Positions 801 through 63,275 of a stretch of DNA of 64,000 bases are shown one piece after another. The position numbers and the translations under genes were made by a program. How positions within the stretch are numbered: the first letter of the stretch is position 1; the number at the start of each line of letters is the position of its first letter. This stretch comes from Escherichia coli (lineage in GTDB: Bacteria; Pseudomonadota; Gammaproteobacteria; Enterobacterales; Enterobacteriaceae): assembly GCF_050320075.1 (NCBI RefSeq), contig NZ_CP190018.1; one strand, written 5' to 3'. The notes under the pieces are model-generated. The model was not told the DNA's origin. It searched no databases and worked only from the letters and a program-made list of their open reading frames with translations.

Positions 801-1044
801 TTTCCGCGTCATGCTTCACGCCGCAGATGCGTTGGCTGCGCTCGTTCACCCCAGTCACATAGTTATCTATGCTCCTGGGGCTTCACTCACTTGCCGCGTG
901 ATTCGGCCTTTTGGCCTCACCCCTTTGGGGCCAGCGCAAGCGCTGTTCAAAACGCAATGCGTTTTGTCCTGCAACGCGAATCATTTAGCGGAAAAATCCT
1001 GGGGCTGCCAACTGGCGGCCCTTTTACAAAGAAGGATAACTAAA

Positions 1045-31455: not shown

Positions 31456-32040
31456 TTATTGTTTGTTTTTTTCGTTCTGGTTGATGACAAATTCAATGTA
31501 ACTTTCGATCTTTGCTTTCTCGGTTTCGGGTAACAATGCGTAGCGCGAGCGATCATAGTTGATGGTCGCAGGGTCGTGCGGGTGAATCAGTAATTCATAG
31601 CCGTGACGCCCGAATGCGGATGCAACATTCTCCAGGGTGGAAATGGAAACGCTGACCTCATTGTTTAACAGGCGGCTGATTGTCACCTGGGCTACGCCGG
31701 ATGCGCGGTGAAGTTTTCCCTGTGTTGAAAGGTCGCGGCTTTCGCTCATCCAGCGTTCCAGGTTGTGAGCCGCCAGCTGGCCAATGTCGCTTGGGCCGAC
31801 AGGCTGAAAACCTTCCTGAGAAAGCGAGCGATCGATATCAAGCCAGTTACGGGGTTTATTGGCGGCAGCTTCAATTTTTCGCGCAACCTGATCGCCGATA
31901 ACCTTCTTACCAAGAGCCCAGCGGTTTACCAGATTTGCCTGAGTTCCAAGTTTTTCAGCCATCCGCGTCTGAACACCATTGAATTCACGGTCGATCAAGT
32001 CGTTGAGATTTTGCCTGCGGACGTCCTGGATACTTTTCAT
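31456..32040 (-). CDS. prophage repressor candidate (CI-like), tandem HTH domains, no recognisable S24 peptidase domain
   Basis: 194-aa protein; HTH-like segments QTRMAEKLGTQANLVNRWALGKK and LHRASGVAQVTISRLLNNEVSVSISTLENVASAFG; divergent from a Cro-like gene across an operator-rich gap. Confidence 0.65.
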   Translation of the reverse strand: MKSIQDVRRQNLNDLIDREFNGVQTRMAEKLGTQANLVNRWALGKKVIGDQVARKIEAAANKPRNWLDIDRSLSQEGFQPVGPSDIGQLAAHNLERWMSESRDLSTQGKLHRASGVAQVTISRLLNNEVSVSISTLENVASAFGRHGYELLIHPHDPATINYDRSRYALLPETEKAKIESYIEFVINQNEKNKQ

Positions 32041-38113: not shown

Positions 38114-38710
38114 ATGATGCCTGCTGAACCTAAAACCTATAAACGCAAATCAACGCAATTTAAGCCACTAACCGCAATGCAGGAGGCTTATTGCCAGTCA
38201 TACATCAAAACGCCTGAAAACCAGACTCAGGCAGCGATTAACGCAGGATTCTCCCCAAATACAGCGGCAGTTAAAGCCAGTGTCATGATGCGCGATGAAC
38301 GCATTCAAAAACGGATTGCCGAGTTGATGGAGGAGCGCAACAAACGAATGCGCGTCAGTGCCGATTACGTTCTCATGCGCCTGGTGGAGATCGACCAGAT
38401 GGACGTGATTGATATCCTCAATGACGATGGGAGCCTTAAGCCAATCCGCGAGTGGCCGAAAATCTGGCGCACTACGCTTAGTGGCTTTGATCTGTCATCG
38501 ACCATCATGAACATGAACGAGGATTCGATAGAGACAATTCTCAAAAAAATTAAATGGCCTGACAAGGTGAAGAACCTCGAACTGATTGGTAAGCACGTCG
38601 ACGTCAATGCATTCAAAGAACGCCTGGATGTTAATGTGAATGTGACAATTGCTGATCGCATAGCGGCAGCCAGGAAGCGACTCAAAGAACGTCAGGATGG
38701 TAATCAGTGA
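38114..38710 (+). CDS. terminase small subunit
   Basis: ORF 38036-38710; start placed at ATG 38114/38117 (MPAEPKTYKRKS...); directly upstream of, and overlapping, the large terminase gene (GTGA). Confidence 0.6.
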   Translation: MMPAEPKTYKRKSTQFKPLTAMQEAYCQSYIKTPENQTQAAINAGFSPNTAAVKASVMMRDERIQKRIAELMEERNKRMRVSADYVLMRLVEIDQMDVIDILNDDGSLKPIREWPKIWRTTLSGFDLSSTIMNMNEDSIETILKKIKWPDKVKNLELIGKHVDVNAFKERLDVNVNVTIADRIAAARKRLKERQDGNQ

Positions 38711-40182
38711 CAGATACAGCGTTATCTCCTGAAGAGCAGTTGATCGAGGATATTGCAGGGTTCACTCACGATCCGCTTGGCTATGCCCTCTATGCGTTCC
38801 CGTGGGGGGAAGAGGGGACTGAACTGGCACATGCTACCGGCCCACGTCAGTGGCAGGCTGATGCGTTCCGAGAGATACGTGATCACCTGCAGAATCCAGA
38901 GACGCGCTATCAGCCGCTTATGCTGGCACGCGCTTCTGGTCACGGTATTGGTAAATCCGCATTCATCTCAATGCTGATCAACTGGGGCATGTCCACTTGC
39001 GAGGATTGTAAGGTCGTGGTGACCGCCAACACCGACAACCAGCTACGAACGAAGACCTGGCCGGAAATTATCAAGTGGTCGAACCTTGCTATCACGAAAG
39101 ACTGGTTTACCTGTACCGCTACTGCGATGTACAGCAATGATCCTGGGCACGACAAGCGGTGGCGAGCTGACGCAATCCCCTGGTCTGAGCACAACACTGA
39201 GGCATTCGCCGGACTACACAACGAGCGCAAACGCATCATCGTGGTATTCGATGAAGCGTCGAACATTGCGGATCTGGTGTGGGAAGTTGCTGAGGGTGCG
39301 CTTACGGACGAAGACACTGAGATTATCTGGGTGGCGTTCGGAAACCCTACACGTAATACCGGGCGTTTTCGCGAATGTTTCCGCAAATACAAACACCGCT
39401 GGAAAACTGCGCAGATTGACAGCCGGACGGTGGAAGGTACTAACAAACAGCAGTTGCAGAAATGGGTTGATGACTACGGGGAAGACAGCGACTTCGTTAA
39501 AATCCGTGTGCGCGGCATATTCCCTGATGCATCTGAATTGCAGTTTATCCCTACCGGTCTTACTGATGAGGCAATGAAACGGGTGGTAACCGCTGCGCAG
39601 GTTGCACATGCTCCGGTGATAATCGGCGTTGACCCGGCATACTCCGGAGTTGATGACGCTGTGATATACCTGCGGCAGGGGCTGCACAGTAAGGTGCTGT
39701 GGACTGGCAACAAGACCACTGACGATCTGATAATGGCGAAGCGTATCGCTGACTTTGAAGACCAGTACCAGGCTGACGCAGTGTTCATCGACTTCGGTTA
39801 CGGAACTGGTCTGAAGTCAATCGGTGACGGCTGGGGTCGTACATGGCAACTTGTTCCGTTCGGTGGCGCGTCTACTGACCCGCAGATGCTCAACAAGCGT
39901 GGGGAGATGTTCAACTCATGCAAGACATGGCTGAGGCTGGGCGGGATGCTGGATGACCAGGAAACAGCAGACGACCTGTCGACGGCAGAGTACAAAGTTC
40001 GCGTGGACGGTAAAATCGTTATCGAACCGAAGGAAGATATCAAGGAGCGGCTTGGGCGTTCGCCGGGTAAAGGCGATGCGCTACTGCTGACGTTTGCGTT
40101 CCCTGTGTCTAAGCGTCTGCGAATTCCCGGGCAGCAGAACCAGCAAGGCAAGGCCATTACAGATTACGATCCCTATGCTTAA
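38707..40182 (+). CDS. terminase large subunit
   Basis: 491-aa ORF with a Walker A-like ATPase region and C-terminal nuclease-like region. Confidence 0.85.
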   Translation: MTDTALSPEEQLIEDIAGFTHDPLGYALYAFPWGEEGTELAHATGPRQWQADAFREIRDHLQNPETRYQPLMLARASGHGIGKSAFISMLINWGMSTCEDCKVVVTANTDNQLRTKTWPEIIKWSNLAITKDWFTCTATAMYSNDPGHDKRWRADAIPWSEHNTEAFAGLHNERKRIIVVFDEASNIADLVWEVAEGALTDEDTEIIWVAFGNPTRNTGRFRECFRKYKHRWKTAQIDSRTVEGTNKQQLQKWVDDYGEDSDFVKIRVRGIFPDASELQFIPTGLTDEAMKRVVTAAQVAHAPVIIGVDPAYSGVDDAVIYLRQGLHSKVLWTGNKTTDDLIMAKRIADFEDQYQADAVFIDFGYGTGLKSIGDGWGRTWQLVPFGGASTDPQMLNKRGEMFNSCKTWLRLGGMLDDQETADDLSTAEYKVRVDGKIVIEPKEDIKERLGRSPGKGDALLLTFAFPVSKRLRIPGQQNQQGKAITDYDPYA

Positions 40183-40272
40183 TCCGTTAGCGGGGATAAT
40201 GACGGAGATATCCTCTGGTGAGGATAAAACAAAGCCAGCTCATCGGCTGGCTGTTTGTGACATGTCACGGTG

Positions 40273-40644
40273 TTATTGCTCGCTTAACTTCTGCTTCAGC
40301 AAGTAACCTTCAAGCATCCAGATTTTGTTTACAGCATTCTGCCGGGCAATCTTCCGACCAATTTCCGCATCAAAGTTTTCCGGGCTTGCACAGGCGCTCT
40401 CTCCGGTGACGGTGAAGCCGTTGCGCAGCACCAGAACGCAGAACGTCAGCAGAGAAAGTGATTCGTGCGGCTGGTAGTTTACCTCTCCGCCAGTATGTTT
40501 CGCTTTTATGGCTACGCCAAAGACACCATCTTCTGCTGTGAAATATGCCTCCTGAGCAATAATGCTCTCGATATGGTCTGGCGTAACGCGCGGCGCGGCT
40601 AAACCTTTAGCCTGAATTTCAGATTCAATGTCTTTGTCACTCAT
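40273..40644 (-). CDS. hypothetical phage protein
   Basis: 123-aa minus-strand ORF inserted between terminase and portal genes; AAGGTGA SD upstream. Confidence 0.45.
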   Translation of the reverse strand: MSDKDIESEIQAKGLAAPRVTPDHIESIIAQEAYFTAEDGVFGVAIKAKHTGGEVNYQPHESLSLLTFCVLVLRNGFTVTGESACASPENFDAEIGRKIARQNAVNKIWMLEGYLLKQKLSEQ

Positions 40645-40847
40645 AGTCTAATCTCACCTTAAAAAAATGCCCGGCGAACCGGGCGAACTGGAAGCAATGA
40701 GTTATGCCTTCCGTGGCTGTACTGGTTTACAGCATGAAGTCATCGCAATGGCGTCCTGCTGTAAAAAGGGCGGTGATAGTCCTTCAAGGGAAACCATCAC
40801 CGCCAAGCACCTGGAACTTCTGGCATCACGGTCCTTAGGCGTGATTC

Positions 40848-40924
40848 TGGCGTGGCATGCAGGATTCGAACCTGCGACCAACCGCTTAGAAGGCGGTTGC
40901 TCTGTCCAACTGAGCTAATGCCAC
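40848..40924 (-). tRNA. tRNA-Arg (anticodon UCU), phage-encoded
   Basis: Manual cloverleaf: acceptor GTGGCAT/ATGCCAC, D-arm GCTC/GAGC, anticodon stem ACCGC/GCGGT, loop CTTCTAA (UCU), T-arm GCAGG-TTCGAAT-CCTGC, discriminator G, CCA encoded; closely resembles host argU. Confidence 0.85.
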
Positions 40925-41352
40925 AACGCTGAGAGCACTTAGCCTGTTAAGTGCGCCACACTTTGTCGCAGCTCCATAAATGCTCTCATCGTTGTACCCT
41001 CGTCTCTTCCGAGGCGTCACACCGAATCGCCGGGATGGTGAATCCCCGTGCGCGGAATAAAACCGCTCGACTTGCACATTCCGGCTACCTGGTTCGTTTG
41101 CCCGAGCAAGGGAGGGTGCCCCTTAAACGTATCCAGACCGCTATCGGCGCATGTGCCATACGCCGTACTGCTCAAAATAAAAGCTCACTCCACCTGTTCA
41201 ATTTAACGACAAGCCAGTCAGGTTAATAACCGGAATGAACCATTTACTTACCTGAAAGGTAATAATTCGTGCGTTAAATGTCAACTACCTACGATAAATA
41301 AATCATATGTGGTTAAATTGGTAATAATTTAATTGCGTACGGAGTCATTGAT

Positions 41353-41559
41353 ATGTGCATGGGTAGCTCACCATCAGTGCCTGCAACACCAGAAGTTCAG
41401 GCAGCACCACAGGAGCAGGATGCCGCCGTTGTTGATGCCCGCGACGAAGAAACACGTCGCCGTCGCGCTGCTGCTGGTCGTAGTTCTACGCTGCTTACCG
41501 GTTCTCAGGGCGACACATCAACTGCTAATACCAGCGGTAAAACGCTGCTTGGTCAGTAA
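41353..41559 (+). CDS. hypothetical small protein
   Basis: 68-aa ORF just upstream of the portal gene with the same SD context (ggagtcattga-ATG) as the portal gene. Confidence 0.4.
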   Translation: MCMGSSPSVPATPEVQAAPQEQDAAVVDARDEETRRRRAAAGRSSTLLTGSQGDTSTANTSGKTLLGQ

Positions 41560-41573
41560 CCGGAGTCATTGAA

Positions 41574-43253
41574 ATGGCGGAAACAACTAAAGAGCGATTG
41601 AGCAAACAGTTCGCACAACTTGAAAGCGAGCGTCAGTCGTTCGAGCCGCACTGGCGCGAGTTGAGTGATTACATCAACCCGCGTGGTTCCCGCTTTCTGA
41701 CTTCTGAGGCCAACCGTAACGATCGGCGCAATACACACATTATTGATTCGACCGGGACTATGGCGGCGCGCACTCTCGCCAGCGGCATGATGTCAGGCAT
41801 CACAAGCCCCGCGCGTCCGTGGTTTCGCCTGGCTACGCCAGATCCTGAAATGATGGATTATGGCCCTGTTAAGTTGTGGCTTGAGGCGGTGCAGAACCGC
41901 ATGAACGATATGTTCAATAAGTCGAATCTCTATCAGTCGCTGCCGCAGTTATACGGAAGCCTCGGCACATACAGCACCGGTGCAATGGCGGTACTGGAGG
42001 ATGATGAGGACATCATTCGCACAATGCCATTCCCGATAGGCAGTTACTACCTGGCTAACTCACCTCGTGGCAGTGTTGACACCTGTTTTCGCAAGTTCTC
42101 TATGACTGTTCGTCAGCTTGTTCAGGAGTTCGGGCTAAATAACGTCAGCGAATCCGTAAAAAGCATGTGGGAAAGCGGCATCTACGAGAAGTGGATTGAC
42201 GTGATGCATTCGGTTTACCCGAACATTGACCGCGATACATCGAAGCTGGATAGCAAGAACAAGCCATTCAAATCGGTTTATTACGAGGTTGGTGGCGATA
42301 ACGACAAGTTGTTGCGTGAGTCCGGATTCGATGAGTTTCCAATTATGGCTCCGCGCTGGGAAGTTAACGGTGAAGATGTTTATGGATCATCATGCCCGGG
42401 CATGCTGGCGCTTGGACCTGTTAAGGCATTGCAGCTTCTCCAGAAGCGCAAGTCGCAGTTGATTGATAAAGCCACCAATCCGCCGATGGTTGCTCCGACT
42501 TCCCTCAAGAATCAGCGCGCCTCCCTTCTTCCTGGCGACATCACGTATATCGATCAGATTACTGGTCAGGATGGCTTCAGGCCTGCTTATCTGGTTAACC
42601 CCAGTACAGCAGATTTGGTGGCAGACATTCAGGACACTCGTCAAATCATTAACAGCGCCTACTTTGTCGATCTGTTCATGATGTTGCAGAACATCAATAC
42701 CCGCTCGATGCCTGTTGAAGCGGTGATCGAAATGAAAGAAGAAAAACTTCTGATGTTGGGGCCGGTTCTGGAGCGTCTGAACGACGAATGTCTTAATCCT
42801 CTCATTGACCGCGCTTTCTCGATGATGGTGCGTAAAAACATGCTGCCGCCACCGCCTGACGCGATGGAAGGCATGCCCCTGAAGGTCGAATACATTTCCG
42901 TCATGGCTCAGGCGCAGAAGTCTATCGGCCTGTCCAGTCTGGCGTCCACGGTTAACTTCATTGGTCAACTTGCGCAAGCGAAACCAGAAGCTCTCGACAA
43001 ACTCAACGTTGATCAGGCGATCGATGCATTCGCTGATATGTCCGGAGTGTCTCCAACCGTCATTGTTCCGCAGGAACAGGTTGAGCAGGCTCGCCAGCAA
43101 CGGGCACAGCAGCAACAGCAGCAACAAATGATGGCGATGGGGATGGCGGCGGCACAGGGGGCCAAGACGCTAAGCGAAGCTAAAACTTCGGATCCGAGTG
43201 TTTTGTCAGCTATGGCGAATGCAGTTAGTGGTCAGGGTGGGCAATCACAATGA
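41574..43253 (+). CDS. portal protein
   Basis: 559-aa ORF downstream of the large terminase and upstream of scaffold and capsid; size and Q-rich C-terminal tail typical of podovirus portals. Confidence 0.7.
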   Translation: MAETTKERLSKQFAQLESERQSFEPHWRELSDYINPRGSRFLTSEANRNDRRNTHIIDSTGTMAARTLASGMMSGITSPARPWFRLATPDPEMMDYGPVKLWLEAVQNRMNDMFNKSNLYQSLPQLYGSLGTYSTGAMAVLEDDEDIIRTMPFPIGSYYLANSPRGSVDTCFRKFSMTVRQLVQEFGLNNVSESVKSMWESGIYEKWIDVMHSVYPNIDRDTSKLDSKNKPFKSVYYEVGGDNDKLLRESGFDEFPIMAPRWEVNGEDVYGSSCPGMLALGPVKALQLLQKRKSQLIDKATNPPMVAPTSLKNQRASLLPGDITYIDQITGQDGFRPAYLVNPSTADLVADIQDTRQIINSAYFVDLFMMLQNINTRSMPVEAVIEMKEEKLLMLGPVLERLNDECLNPLIDRAFSMMVRKNMLPPPPDAMEGMPLKVEYISVMAQAQKSIGLSSLASTVNFIGQLAQAKPEALDKLNVDQAIDAFADMSGVSPTVIVPQEQVEQARQQRAQQQQQQQMMAMGMAAAQGAKTLSEAKTSDPSVLSAMANAVSGQGGQSQ

Positions 43254-58977: not shown

Positions 58978-59664
58978 TCAGAAGAACCCTGCTTTGTCGT
59001 TGATGTACTCCGCGTGCGTCTGGATATCACGCAGGCATTTACTCACACCGACGATGTAGCAGAACATGGTGGTCAACTCCGCCGCCGCGCCCGATACGTC
59101 GTGCCCGTCGTCCTGTAACTGGTTCAGCAAATTCATCAGCAGTGAGTTCTCCGTCAGGCCGAGAACACCAGACGGCGAATGAATCAGGCTACGGTAGCCG
59201 GGCTTCAGTGGGGCGCTGTAGGTTTTGTTCTCTATCTTCATTGCCTGCATCACTGCTGATGCTGTGGCGTTGGCTACCTGGTCGGCAACCATCTTTATGC
59301 GTTCTTCCTGCGGGAGCGAGTTTTTAATGTAACTTCCGGTGCGGCGGATCTGAGGAAGAACCTCACCTGTAACCCATTTGCGAAAGCGGTAGGGGATAGT
59401 GCCTGGTGTTACTGCATCGCGGCAGCGGAGGATCAGTGTGTAGAGGCCTGACTCGTTGATAATATTGGTTTCGCCTTGACGGCCTAAGTTAAATTTAGCC
59501 CTTTCATCATCATCAAGAGATTTTATTGACATAGTGGGGTTTGTCAGTTGAAGAGCTTTAATAACGTCTTTGGCAACAAACCAAGGATTTCCATCAATAA
59601 CAATGGCTCGAATGGTTGCTTCTGATTCAAAATGAAAAACAGATGGGGTTACGTTAGCAGTCAT
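58978..59664 (-). CDS. antirepressor (Bro-N domain protein)
   Basis: ORF 58978-59817; start placed at the ATG giving MTANVTPSVFHFESEATIRAIVIDGNPWFVAKDVIKALQL... (Bro-N signature); AAGGTGA SD. Confidence 0.7.
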   Translation of the reverse strand: MTANVTPSVFHFESEATIRAIVIDGNPWFVAKDVIKALQLTNPTMSIKSLDDDERAKFNLGRQGETNIINESGLYTLILRCRDAVTPGTIPYRFRKWVTGEVLPQIRRTGSYIKNSLPQEERIKMVADQVANATASAVMQAMKIENKTYSAPLKPGYRSLIHSPSGVLGLTENSLLMNLLNQLQDDGHDVSGAAAELTTMFCYIVGVSKCLRDIQTHAEYINDKAGFF

Positions 59665-59817
59665 AGTGATCACCTTTGTAGTTAGGTTAATCACCACTAC
59701 CGACGCCAATCGGTTGGTGGTGAACTGTGCAGGGTTGGCGTAACCGGCTACAAAGGACCCGGCGCACCTTTCGGTGCCCCCACACAGCCCACCATAGAAT
59801 AGGTGCGCTTTACACAT

Positions 59818-59838
59818 AAAAAAAACCGCTTATGCGGC
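59818..59838 (-). terminator. intrinsic terminator after the 90-aa gene
   Basis: Hairpin ccgcataagcgg followed on the minus strand by eight U. Confidence 0.5.
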
Positions 59839-59977
59839 ATATGTGCCTCTGTAGTAACTCGGGACGCCAATCCCGGCACTGGATTTTGCCAGTGCCCGAT
59901 TACTATGGCACAAGAGGAGTGCGTTGTAAATTTACCGCAAAGGTAAATATAAGCACTCCACTTGGCAATTGCAAACC

Positions 59978-60431: not shown

Positions 60432-63275
60432 ATGACGGTCTCAACCGAAGTTGACCACAACGAATACACAGGTAACGGCGTTACGACATCGTTTCCGTAT
60501 ACTTTTCGAATTTTCAGAAAATCAGACCTGGTTGTTCAGGTGTCTGACCTGAACGGGAACGTAACAGAATTGGTTCTGGATACCGGTTATACGGTAACTG
60601 GGGCGGGCACTTATAGTGGCGGTTCAGTGGTTCTGCCGTCTCCGCTTGCTGCTGGCTGGCGAATTACGATAGATCGTGTGCTTGATGTAGTGCAGGAGAC
60701 AGACCTCCGCAATCAGGGAAAGTTTTTCCCCGAAGTGCATGAAGATGCCTTTGACTACCTGACGATGCTGATCCAGCAATGTTTTGGGTGGTTCAGACGT
60801 GCATTGATGAAGCCCTCTCTGCTTGCAAAATATTACGATGCAAAGCAAAACAGAATTTCTAACCTTGCAGATCCATCACTTGAGCAGGACGCTGTAAATA
60901 ATCGCTCAATGCGTAATTATGTCGATGCTGCAATCGCCGGAGTTGTTGGTGGTTTTGGTTGGTTTATTCAGTATGGTTCTGGGGCAGTATATCGCACCTT
61001 CCAGGACAAGATGCGAGATGAAATAAATGTTCATGATTATGGTGCTATAGGTGATGGAAATTATCACCCGCTTTCTGAACGTTATTCATCGTTGGCTGCT
61101 GCGCAGCAACAATATCCATTTGCTACTTCCCTTGGTCAGTCTATTGACTGGGCTGCAATACAGGCAGCGATCAATGCCTCACAAGGCAGAAAGGTAAAAT
61201 TATTAGCAAAAACATACATTTCTACTGATGGATTCACTGGCGTTGATGGTCTTTGTTTAATTGGTGAAGGTGCTACCCCTTTTTACCTTAACTTTCAGGA
61301 CATTCCATACACCAACAATGGTGGTACTGACATTCTTTTCTATGGTACAGGCCAAAAGAACAGAAGCATTTATGGTATTTCGGATATGCAGCCATCCGGT
61401 GGTGTGAGGACAGATCCTGATTTAGGCGTGACTCATGCATTAACCAATATGACGAATGGAGACGCCAGCACTTCGGCGGCTGCAACCCCTCGAGCAGTAA
61501 GCGCTGGCTTATACCTTGAGCATTGCAAAGGCTGGCAAATTGAGGGAATCCGATTTGCTCCATATTTTAACGGGGTCGAATCATATACAGACCAGACTAA
61601 CTTAGGGCTGGCTGATGAATGGGATATCGGAATTCTCATCAATAGTTCTTATGATGGTGTAATGCGCGATGTTCGCGCGGTTGGGCACTGGCGAGTTGCT
61701 GGCCTGGCTGTGTTTGCAGGCGAAAATCCTTTCAACACAGGCGCGTCATCTTCATGTGAACGAAACAGATTTTTTTCCTGTCAGTTTAATGGAAAGTCTG
61801 GCGTTCTTATTCGCGGCGGGGATGCCTACCGGTGTACAGCAGTAACAGCTGACACTGTCGAAATTCCATGGCACGATTCAAACCCGTTCCGGCATACCGG
61901 TGGGGTATTTCTTGGGGCCTTTGGTGGCGCAACCTCTGCAAGCTATACCTATACCAGCGCAACGGTTACCGGTGATAAGCTGACGCTCCACGGAGTAAGC
62001 CCTAACCCTTTATCGAATGGTATGACAACATCTTCAGGGGTGTATACCGGTAGAAGTTATGGGTTCCAGGGTACGCAATTCTTTGGTTGTTACTTTGGCG
62101 GCCTTGAGCATCAGACTAACCGAGTGGCTACAGACCCGGCGCTTACCTCACCATTCCCTACGTCGTCAAAACCTGTCGAAATTTCAGGTGTTCCGGCAGG
62201 AAATATCAGGTTCTATGGTTGTACGCACATGACCCGGGAAGACTGTGTGTGGATGATCCATAACGCCTCAAATATCTACGACTTCGGAGGCTATTTTGAG
62301 GCCAAGCGAGCGATCACTGCTACTGGCGGCGGCTCGCGCATGGTAGCCATCGGTAATTGGCCTGATTACACCCCGACTGCAGAATCACCATATCCGTTTG
62401 GTACGGTCAGTAACATAAATATGTTCGGTTCGCAGGCTCTTAATTTCGTTGATATGTACCCTGTAGTTGCCCGTTCTACAGGTGTAACGCGCTTTACCTC
62501 CGGGATGTGGGATTGTAAGACCCTCTATAGCTCCGAGGCATTTCAGGATCTTGCTGACACCAACAACTATGTAATAAAGGGTTTACGAAACGAAAGCATA
62601 AGGTTCGAGGACGGAGCCGGCGGCCATCTTATGACCATGCAGAATATTGGCAATCTCCTGCTTGGTAAGCGCGCCAGATTTAACACCTCAACAGAGGATC
62701 GTTATCAGTTCTATCGACTCGATGGAACAACCATTTTCTTATCCCTCGATGGCACGATGTCCACGCCAGTAATGACTCTGGATGGAAACTTTGTCCCTGC
62801 AGTTGCCAATACAAGGTTGGTCGGAACTGCGGCCAAGCCCTTCTCGGGAGGTAATACCCAGACAGCTTATAACATCACTTCTGACCGGAACTACAAAACT
62901 GACTTTGGTGAAATTCCTGACGCCGTTCTGGATGCATGGGAATTGGTGCAGTATTCACAATATAAACTCAGGGATGCAGTTGCGTTGAAGGGGGAAGGCG
63001 CCAGATTACATGTCGGTGTTGTTGCACAGCAGGTGAAAGAGGCATTTGAATCAGTAGGGGTCGATCCTTTTGCATATGGCGTACTGTGCTACGACGAATG
63101 GTCTGGTCAGGAAGAAGTTATTGAGGACGGTGTCATTACGCAGCAAAAAGTGGAAGCAGGGAAGCGTTACAGTGTGCGCTACGAAGAGGCATATGCAATA
63201 GAGTCCGCCTTGCTTCGGAGAACTCATACCAGATTGGAGCAGCGCTTATCTTCTCTTGAAGAAAAATCAAAATAG
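60432..63275 (+). CDS. tailspike/tail fibre protein with C-terminal S74 intramolecular chaperone domain
   Basis: 947-aa ORF; conserved podovirus N-terminal region; C-terminal ...NITSDRNYKTDF... autoproteolysis motif (Ser/Lys dyad) typical of Peptidase_S74 chaperone domains. Confidence 0.8.
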   Translation: MTVSTEVDHNEYTGNGVTTSFPYTFRIFRKSDLVVQVSDLNGNVTELVLDTGYTVTGAGTYSGGSVVLPSPLAAGWRITIDRVLDVVQETDLRNQGKFFPEVHEDAFDYLTMLIQQCFGWFRRALMKPSLLAKYYDAKQNRISNLADPSLEQDAVNNRSMRNYVDAAIAGVVGGFGWFIQYGSGAVYRTFQDKMRDEINVHDYGAIGDGNYHPLSERYSSLAAAQQQYPFATSLGQSIDWAAIQAAINASQGRKVKLLAKTYISTDGFTGVDGLCLIGEGATPFYLNFQDIPYTNNGGTDILFYGTGQKNRSIYGISDMQPSGGVRTDPDLGVTHALTNMTNGDASTSAAATPRAVSAGLYLEHCKGWQIEGIRFAPYFNGVESYTDQTNLGLADEWDIGILINSSYDGVMRDVRAVGHWRVAGLAVFAGENPFNTGASSSCERNRFFSCQFNGKSGVLIRGGDAYRCTAVTADTVEIPWHDSNPFRHTGGVFLGAFGGATSASYTYTSATVTGDKLTLHGVSPNPLSNGMTTSSGVYTGRSYGFQGTQFFGCYFGGLEHQTNRVATDPALTSPFPTSSKPVEISGVPAGNIRFYGCTHMTREDCVWMIHNASNIYDFGGYFEAKRAITATGGGSRMVAIGNWPDYTPTAESPYPFGTVSNINMFGSQALNFVDMYPVVARSTGVTRFTSGMWDCKTLYSSEAFQDLADTNNYVIKGLRNESIRFEDGAGGHLMTMQNIGNLLLGKRARFNTSTEDRYQFYRLDGTTIFLSLDGTMSTPVMTLDGNFVPAVANTRLVGTAAKPFSGGNTQTAYNITSDRNYKTDFGEIPDAVLDAWELVQYSQYKLRDAVALKGEGARLHVGVVAQQVKEAFESVGVDPFAYGVLCYDEWSGQEEVIEDGVITQQKVEAGKRYSVRYEEAYAIESALLRRTHTRLEQRLSSLEEKSK

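Follow-up and report, generated by a model that had tools for sequence, protein, structure and literature searches.

Is the arginine tRNA gene of a phiV10-type prophage, which is followed on its own strand by two terminator-like hairpins and then by a protein-coding gene with no visible promoter, a gene standing alone, or is it one part of a larger transcribed element? The locus lies in a stretch of 64,000 nucleotides (nt) of Escherichia coli contig NZ_CP190018.1 (assembly GCF_050320075.1), referred to below in its whole length as the window. An earlier reading, made from the letters only (the sequence-only reading), had proposed that the hairpins mark a tRNA-linked small RNA, a processed transcript or an attenuator controlling the next gene. 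Our favoured answer, to which we assign a probability of roughly 0.55, is that the tRNA and both hairpins are parts of one early non-coding transcription unit, a modular cassette of temperate Enterobacterales phages that is related to the dicBF leader of lambdoid prophages. On the minus strand the cassette runs in the order candidate promoter/operator, leader, a structured RNA that we call U, the tRNA, a trailer hairpin, a small RNA in the position of DicF that ends at the first hairpin (T1), a further hairpin (D), a short RNA that ends at the second hairpin (T2), and the protein-coding gene, here termed the cargo (Table 1). This order is kept in Uetakevirus-like phages of E. coli, Salmonella and Klebsiella. 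A tRNA with terminators is an ordinary kind of feature; the conserved and unannotated RNA cassette that surrounds it is unusual.

The larger feature of the locus is U, a structured RNA upstream of the tRNA that the sequence-only reading had missed. By BLAST, hundreds of P1-like plasmids, as well as lambdoid phages, hold unannotated DNA with ~80% identity to window positions 41166–41004, and a covariance model (R1) built from 16 diverse copies of U gave a single match in the window (41168–40995, 161 bits). U comprises four nested helices and one pseudoknot, spanning ~165–240 nt. Across the 16 sequences, 97.3% of alignment cells in the helices and the pseudoknot were paired, and 10 pairs had changed on both sides. 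Of the five measures used, four had observed values that none of 500 shuffles reached; for the fifth, further pair types, 55 of 500 did. The pseudoknot itself changes from CACC/GGUG to AACC/GGUU in the lambdoid type. When the nested helices were scored over 29 distinct sequences, in an alignment fitted to R1 that by construction favours structure, 98.6% of cells were paired and 11 of the 22 pairs had changed on both sides; slid controls were 28–47% paired, and no shuffle (0/500) reached any of the five measures. Among these sequences were 24 stretches carrying U that represent at least 10 genera (Citrobacter, Kosakonia, Klebsiella, Phytobacter, Buttiauxella, Pseudescherichia, Pseudocitrobacter, Superficieibacter, Escherichia and Candidatus Erwinia).

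U appears to be an undescribed RNA. A scan of positions 40150–41650 against Rfam 15 at E ≤ 5 matched only the tRNA in the region and returned no family over U. A full-text literature search for the invariant 19-mer of U retrieved no paper, and a literature search for small RNAs of phiV10 found nothing relevant. U is unannotated in phiV10, P1, TL-2011b and the RefSeq E. coli locus, and only hypothetical-protein calls overlap it in mEp460 and PhiR63_1; the tRNA is the only annotated RNA at the locus. We ruled out that U is a coding region, because its variants (153, 157, 161, 162, 174 and 175 nt) differ in length by non-multiples of three; its helices, moreover, covary. A 16-codon open reading frame (ORF; MRAFMELRQSVAHLTG, 40990–40940, minus strand) with a GAGG motif upstream lies within the terminal hairpin of U; the lambdoid copies do not share its end, so it is probably not translated. 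U is also carried (137–155 bits) by two short contigs that bear the labels of Bacillota and Lachnospiraceae metagenome-assembled genomes (L226 and L244) and are probably misbinned enterobacterial phage DNA.

The phages that carry U fall into P1, lambdoid phages of the Stx2c and mEp460 types, and phages of the phiV10/epsilon15 type. In P1 (AF234173), U occupies 70702–70881 between trnI and ban, unannotated in an otherwise dense annotation, and the ban operon, which has the C1-controlled promoter Pban, also holds an annotated 'dicF-like region' and two more tRNAs. In mEp460 and PhiR63_1, the order is the repressor gene, its terminator, two OR-type operators, U and the early-left genes, with four sites of the operator form TTGC-N7-GCAA against 0.3 expected. 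The cassette therewith sits in a unit bearing sites for the main repressor in P1 and in the lambdoid phages and, we infer, in the phiV10 type as well. In all loci inspected U adjoins a tRNA or a tRNA-like module. P1 has it 3' of trnI; in the lambdoid and phiV10-type contexts it takes the 5' side of its neighbour. In the window, its terminal hairpin stops 5 nt before the tRNA.

The tRNA itself was just as the sequence-only reading had described it. ARAGORN called a single tRNA in the whole window, a tRNA-Arg with anticodon tct at position 35, and the Rfam tRNA model (RF00005) scored it at 73.3 bits against a threshold of 29. The cloverleaf has a 7-nt anticodon loop, and a U stands at position −1. 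Use of AGA, the rare codon it was expected to decode, was about three times as high in the prophage as in the host genes of the window: 4.7 versus 1.5 per 1000 codons, or 7.9% versus 2.4% of arginine codons (ORFs of at least 100 codons, a small sample). Judged by codon use, this enrichment fits an ordinary decoding role. The chief beneficiary is most likely a tail-fibre-sized ORF at 60432–63275 (plus strand), which has the top count in the prophage (11 AGA and 5 AGG).

The place of the tRNA is an exchangeable slot. Among 130 related loci, many of them close relatives, it was filled by tRNA-Arg(UCU) in 82 and had no detectable tRNA in 45, the remaining 3 being cut off by a contig end. Inspection by eye revealed that most of the tRNA-less slots hold a tRNA-like module of 110–230 nt. 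These modules open with GUGGUG(A) after the same ...CGUU/G junction that precedes the tRNA, and close with CACCAC-A, sometimes then followed by CCA, giving the same 5' GUGGUG / 3' CACCAC closing stem. They carry a D-arm-like hairpin and often a T-arm-like hairpin (GCCGG-UUCGAUU-CCGGC), and their minimum-energy folds are predicted to be shut by an acceptor-like stem. ARAGORN called no tRNA in the modules. One of them is the module found upstream of dicF in E. coli K-12.

Downstream of the tRNA, both of the hairpin-plus-U-run elements named by the sequence-only reading were present. T2 lay exactly where it had been placed, and T1 was ~10 nt away from, although overlapping, the interval given for it (40780–40815). 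Each consists of a G+C-rich hairpin followed by a U-run, the form of an intrinsic terminator, which is what both are predicted to be. The 196-nt stretch as a whole beat 200 of 200 shuffles in folding (z = −3.1). The T1 and T2 hairpins are kept in phages of E. coli, Salmonella and Klebsiella with compensatory changes, such as GG/CC to AC/GU in T2. In an alignment of 12 diverse versions of this downstream region, 97.7% of hairpin cells were paired, against 29–43% with the partners slid, and four pairs, two of them in T2, had changed on both sides. The stem of D borrows part of the U-run of T1, and two alleles exist of the segment that immediately precedes T2. Terminator-like sites on the sense strand were found downstream of U in 64 of 70 loci (at least one each), with a mean of 1.4 per 800 nt compared with 0.47 upstream. 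The idea of tRNA-linked small RNAs or of a processed transcript held up for this 3' region, which looks as though it yields small RNAs cut from one transcript.

The same data could be read more simply, as an ordinary phage tRNA gene with T1 as its terminator and T2 as a mere insulator or 5' stabilising hairpin, the conservation of the flanks reflecting linkage with no other functional RNA. Rare-codon tRNAs are common in phages, and AGA is enriched in this prophage. The number of terminator-like sites, taken alone, is not above chance (4 in 2.2 kb, compared with 2.7 ± 1.6 expected), and most downstream columns never vary and say nothing about structure. Against this, covariation in U is strong, and its conservation extends to at least 10 genera and to three phage groups that are unrelated to one another. 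Loci without a tRNA still have T1, D, T2 and the trailer hairpin, the last even where a tRNA-like module stands for the tRNA, and phage phiv142-3 keeps the cassette without a cargo gene. We therefore consider this simpler account unlikely.

The boundary of the cassette is sharp. Identity with many relatives runs exactly to 40661, the last U of T2, and then diverges. In TL-2011b, SPN9TCW and two Klebsiella phages unrelated genes occupy the place of the cargo, and in phiv142-3 everything is kept up to T2, after which the sequence passes straight into the terL terminator. Because the cargo is swapped or absent while the leader stays constant, T2 belongs to the non-coding unit and not to gene 40273–40644. 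This also argues against another part of the sequence-only reading, a leader or attenuator dedicated to that gene. In its favour, the U-run of T2 does end 17 nt before the ATG at 40644, with only the ribosome-binding site AAGGTGAG between them and no space that a promoter would fit. Nor was any acceptable −35/−10 pair found in the T1–T2 interval, by eye or by scan. But no upstream segment in the 12-version alignment was complementary to, or covaried with, the arms of T2; with no conserved alternative pairing to compete with T2 and a gene that can be swapped or lost, a gene-specific attenuator is highly improbable.

The cargo protein matches Pfam family PF13876 over its full length (E = 3.3e-35, model positions 1–82 of 82), a family defined as the Acb4 sponges against CBASS (antiphage signalling systems that use cyclic oligonucleotides) by Chang et al. 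(bioRxiv 10.1101/2024.12.30.630793). Its direct match to the solved SPO1 protein (PDB 9e4w) was weak (E = 0.007). On the strength of the family profile, the cargo is a predicted Acb4-family anti-CBASS sponge homologue. Among the alternative cargo genes, which encode unrelated small proteins, one is annotated as DUF2829, which we take to be the Tad2 sponge family. The cargo slot may be an anti-defence hotspot.

A further possibility concerns the short RNA that ends at T2, which could be a small RNA of the Hfq type, bearing a copy of the seed of RyhB, the iron regulator of the host, and acting on the targets of RyhB. A 13-nt identity (CAUUGCUUCCAGU) joins RyhB 49–61 to window positions 40699–40687 and stands 2 nt before the hairpin and its U7 tract, a match length reached by none of 2000 shuffles. 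The 13-mer occurs in 64 of 111 family copies, and the Rfam RyhB model (RF00057) aligns over its full length. The score of that alignment was nevertheless ~18.1 bits against a gathering threshold of 55 (E = 0.3–2.6), which leaves the RNA outside the family, and the Klebsiella-type allele of the segment before T2 has no RyhB motif. The predicted duplex with the start of sodB (−15.1 kcal/mol) was no better than that of shuffled sequence (−12.9 ± 3.1 kcal/mol; 24% of the shuffles equalled or surpassed it), and the motif is partly paired in the predicted fold. Mimicry of RyhB is accordingly quite improbable.

Returning to the reading of one early unit, we searched its upstream end for signals. A candidate promoter with a perfect-consensus −35 (TTGACA) lies in a block conserved in the Klebsiella and Salmonella versions. 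Overlapping its −10 is the palindrome TTACCT-N3-AGGTAA, of which there are 10 sites in the window, all within the prophage, against 0.07 expected. These sites flank the repressor gene (31456–32040, phrog_8) on both sides and stand before several operons, one of them the C4/isrK/ant operon, in a scattered P1-like pattern; in relatives the palindrome is conserved at the same cassette position. Going by this distribution, it is a probable operator of the prophage repressor. In the operon just mentioned, the anti-repressor (Ant) gene comes directly after the C4 antisense RNA (79.5 bits) and isrK (74 bits) (59713–59895 and 58978–59817, both minus strand), and the block is a secondary immunity module of the P1/P7 immI type in a phiV10-type prophage.

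The kinship with dicBF rests on shared parts. The leader aligns with the stretch upstream of dicF in the Qin prophage of K-12, as well as with the versions from Klebsiella and Salmonella. Immediately ahead of dicF, K-12 has a 123-nt module sharing 89% identity with the one that separates U from the T1-like terminator in lambdoid cassettes; further upstream, the K-12 stretch shares the leader motifs CUGUCGUUAAAU and GUGCGCUUCC with the window. All versions share the 5' flank UUUGGCGGU and the tail CCGCCCUUUUUA. The T1 RNA and DicF thereby occupy the same place in a dicBF-type early operon, the window being linked to the lambdoid cassettes through U and these to K-12 dicF through the variable module. 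Like the unit proposed for the window, dicBF is a repressor-controlled unit of early-left type, whose longer transcript contains a small RNA having the UUUGGCGGU flank and a hairpin with a U-run; beyond this RNA is a protein gene reached by read-through, and upstream of it are the same variable module and a related leader. Unlike the window, the Qin locus has neither U nor a tRNA, and its cargo is dicB where the window has the Acb4-family gene. The 5' end of DicF arises by RNase E cleavage of a polycistronic RNA, and its 3' end by termination or by an RNase III cut in read-through dicBF mRNA (PMC5069750). The ydfC–dicF spacer of E. coli K-12 MG1655 (1649189–1649379) contains two pieces with homology in the phage cassettes, a leader remnant and the 123-nt variable module, and 3' of K-12 dicF the start of a second variable module is found (GUGGUGAAUGCGG..., positions 2950–2975 of the K-12 stretch L219). 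A literature search joining DicF with tRNA-like RNAs found nothing relevant.

Several observations weigh against the reading of one early, dicBF-related unit. With the Rfam DicF model (RF00039), positions 40768–40815 aligned over the full length at 13 bits (E = 1.9), short of the gathering threshold of 48; the Klebsiella-type orthologue of the T1 RNA reached 22.7 bits over the full length (E = 0.019), and the lambdoid-type copy gave no match. In a crude duplex test against the start of ftsZ, the T1 RNA scored −31.8 kcal/mol with 42% of shuffles as good, compared with −38.5 kcal/mol and 9% for K-12 DicF. The idea that the T1 RNA works as a DicF was set aside on this test, and because its ftsZ complementarity does not exceed chance we label it DicF-position and not a member of the DicF family. 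At the other end of the cassette, a consensus scan reported no promoter, the candidate falling below the threshold because its weak −10 matches at only 3 of 6 positions, and a divergent rightward promoter could just as well be the one that the palindrome serves. The downstream hairpins show modest covariation, as far as the aligned sequences tell, with most columns invariant. The invariance of D partly reflects how the loci were collected, since its own 16-mer served to fetch many of them; that 16-mer, ACGCCAUUGCGAUGAC, is also invariant in 8 relatives retrieved by BLAST and not by motif search. With many close relatives among the loci, locus counts cannot be taken as counts of independent events. 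Promoter, processing sites and read-through are, finally, elements that we infer.

Table 1 Features of the cassette and its surroundings. Positions are those of the window unless another locus is named.
Feature	Position	Strand	Description
Palindrome sites (15 nt each)	26240, 31322, 31384, 32096, 32481, 34427, 34489, 41248, 59932, 60313
Candidate cassette promoter	41256–41284	−	TTGACA 41284–41279, 17-nt spacer, TACCTT 41261–41256; read from the sequence
Palindrome TTACCT-N3-AGGTAA	41248–41262	.	Overlaps the −10; probable repressor operator
Leader upstream of U	41169–41247	−	Motifs CUUGUCGUUAAAU, GGAGUGAGCUU
U RNA	40931–41168	−	Core 41168–40995; terminal hairpin GAGAGCA (40987–40981)...UGCUCUC (40937–40931)
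tRNA-Arg(UCU)	40848–40924	−	ARAGORN and Rfam tRNA model; CCA encoded; preceded by ...CGUU/G
Trailer hairpin	40825–40845	−	AUCACG-CCUAAGGAC-CGUGAU, directly 3' of the tRNA
DicF-position small RNA	40763–40820	−	GUUCCAGGUGC-UUGGCGGU..., hairpin T1 40804–40769, U-run 40767–40763; terminator scan
T1	Stem 40804–40769; U-run 40767–40763	−	14 pairs, then CUUUUU; terminator scan
D hairpin	40726–40765	−	Stem UUUACAGC (40765–40758) / GCUGUAAA (40733–40726); near-invariant loop ACGCCAUUGCGAUGAC (40754–40739)
Short RNA ending at T2	40661–40725	−	Predicted; terminator scan, two covarying T2 pairs
T2	Stem 40684–40669; U-run 40667–40661	−	6 G-C pairs, then ATTTTTTT (AU7); terminator scan
Cargo gene	40273–40644	−	Acb4-family (PF13876), predicted; no promoter of its own seen
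T3	40233–40252	−	Closes the unit opposite the end of terL; annotated terminator in phiV10; terminator scan
Alternative cargo genes	L009 2697–3218, L010 2345–2851, L003 3549–3896, L012 2782–3063		Unrelated small proteins; one annotated DUF2829

If the cassette is one early unit, transcription would start at a promoter overlapped by the repressor operator, and the unit would be switched on at induction or infection. One early transcript would then carry the leader, U, the tRNA, the trailer hairpin, the T1 RNA, D and the T2 RNA. The tRNA would have two roles, the first in decoding AGA, which is commoner in the phage than in the host, and the second as a cutting mark at which RNase P would cleave 5 nt past the last hairpin of U. 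The U at −1 and the fixed 5-nt spacer agree with an RNase P cut at the 5' end of the tRNA. Processing at 3' ends, together with termination at T1 and T2, would free U, the tRNA and two small RNAs. Most transcripts would end at T1 or T2, and those that read through would supply the cargo mRNA. By analogy with the RNase III cut that gives the longer DicF, D may be the site at which read-through RNA is processed.

What U does within such a unit is a matter of conjecture. Tentatively, it may represent a new class of phage regulatory RNA that acts with the adjoining tRNA or tRNA-like module, either as a put-independent cis antiterminator that opens early operons in phages of the N-less lambdoid, P1-like and phiV10-like kinds, or as a stable trans-acting RNA whose ends are cut by tRNA-processing enzymes, with the K-12 dicF locus as a decayed remnant of the cassette.

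A somewhat more doubtful alternative is that U is a cis-acting processive antiterminator in the manner of put in phage HK022, which would let its own polymerase pass T1, T2 and later terminators so that the promoter-less genes are expressed. The position of U fits this, between an early promoter and terminators further downstream. The put RNA of HK022, an N-less lambdoid phage, is likewise non-coding and follows closely on an early promoter under repressor control, ahead of terminators. In mEp460-like phages, for which no N gene is annotated, U stands at the start of the early-left transcript, and terminator-like hairpins with U-runs lie between it and the early genes. The related lambdoid phage LLS was reported to have no N homologue, and put-like antitermination was suggested for it (PMC12315714). 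The enrichment of sense-strand terminators downstream of U, and the repressor-operator sites in its unit in the three phage groups (probably also in the phiV10 type), point the same way. However, U, with its pseudoknot and ~165–240 nt, is unlike the put RNA, which has ~70 nt and two stems and binds the zinc domain of the RNA polymerase beta' subunit. No sequence similarity between U and put RNA was found, and R1 had no match in HK022 22–30 kb, a stretch outside which the put sites may lie. Furthermore, the Qin prophage of K-12 reads through the dicF terminator although it has no U, in P1 U lies mid-operon with no terminator before ban, and an antiterminator has no obvious need for a tRNA neighbour.

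The association of U with a tRNA has parallels of its own. RNAs whose ends are set by a neighbouring tRNA or tRNA-like structure include the 3'ETS-leuZ spacer RNA of E. coli and the MALAT1–mascRNA pair of mammals, and the large GOLLD and ROOL RNAs often adjoin phage tRNAs. In all loci inspected, U resembles these in abutting a tRNA or a tRNA-like module, with its fixed 5-nt spacer and a U at −1; it differs from them in having no homology to any, and GOLLD and ROOL, which are in Rfam, gave no match. The tRNA of the window can likewise be set beside argN, argO and ileZ of Stx phages and the tRNAs of P1, with which it shares a rare-codon specificity, here tRNA-Arg(UCU) in an AGA-rich phage. Unlike those tRNAs, it is an exchangeable module in a non-coding cassette, and in many relatives its slot is filled by a non-decoding tRNA-like RNA.

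With respect to its genomic setting, the window, in which ryfA and sroE are found, belongs to the E. coli chromosome, and the prophage, of phiV10/epsilon15 type, spans from ~26,090 to the end of the window. Over the tRNA region, identity is 99.2% with phage phiV10 (genus Uetakevirus, epsilon15 group) and 100% with a prophage of E. coli YZLc1-3. The minus-strand tRNA is flanked by genes on the plus strand, terL (38707–40182) on one side and a small ORF (41353–41559) and the portal gene (41574–43253) on the other. ORFs annotated across the cassette locus are not conserved. The annotations of phiV10 (PhiV10p04) and TL-2011b treat one of 83 codons (40667–40918, plus strand), antisense to the tRNA, T1 and D, as a protein, almost certainly in error. 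One further Rfam match, AaHKsRNA22 at 902–974 (minus strand; 47.2 bits against a threshold of 39.8), fell in the host DNA of the window.

Taken for what it means to these phages, U is an overlooked RNA, supported by covariation and absent from Rfam, in phages that are well studied. The cassette is a candidate answer to the question of how N-less lambdoid phages express their early-left operon, which was raised in PMC12315714. At this locus, small RNAs of the DicF type stand together with tRNAs of phages and with tRNA-like RNAs, in a single modular unit that would be defined by processing. Finally, the presence of a known sponge family, Acb4, in the cargo slot suggests that read-through may set the dose or the timing of anti-defence expression.

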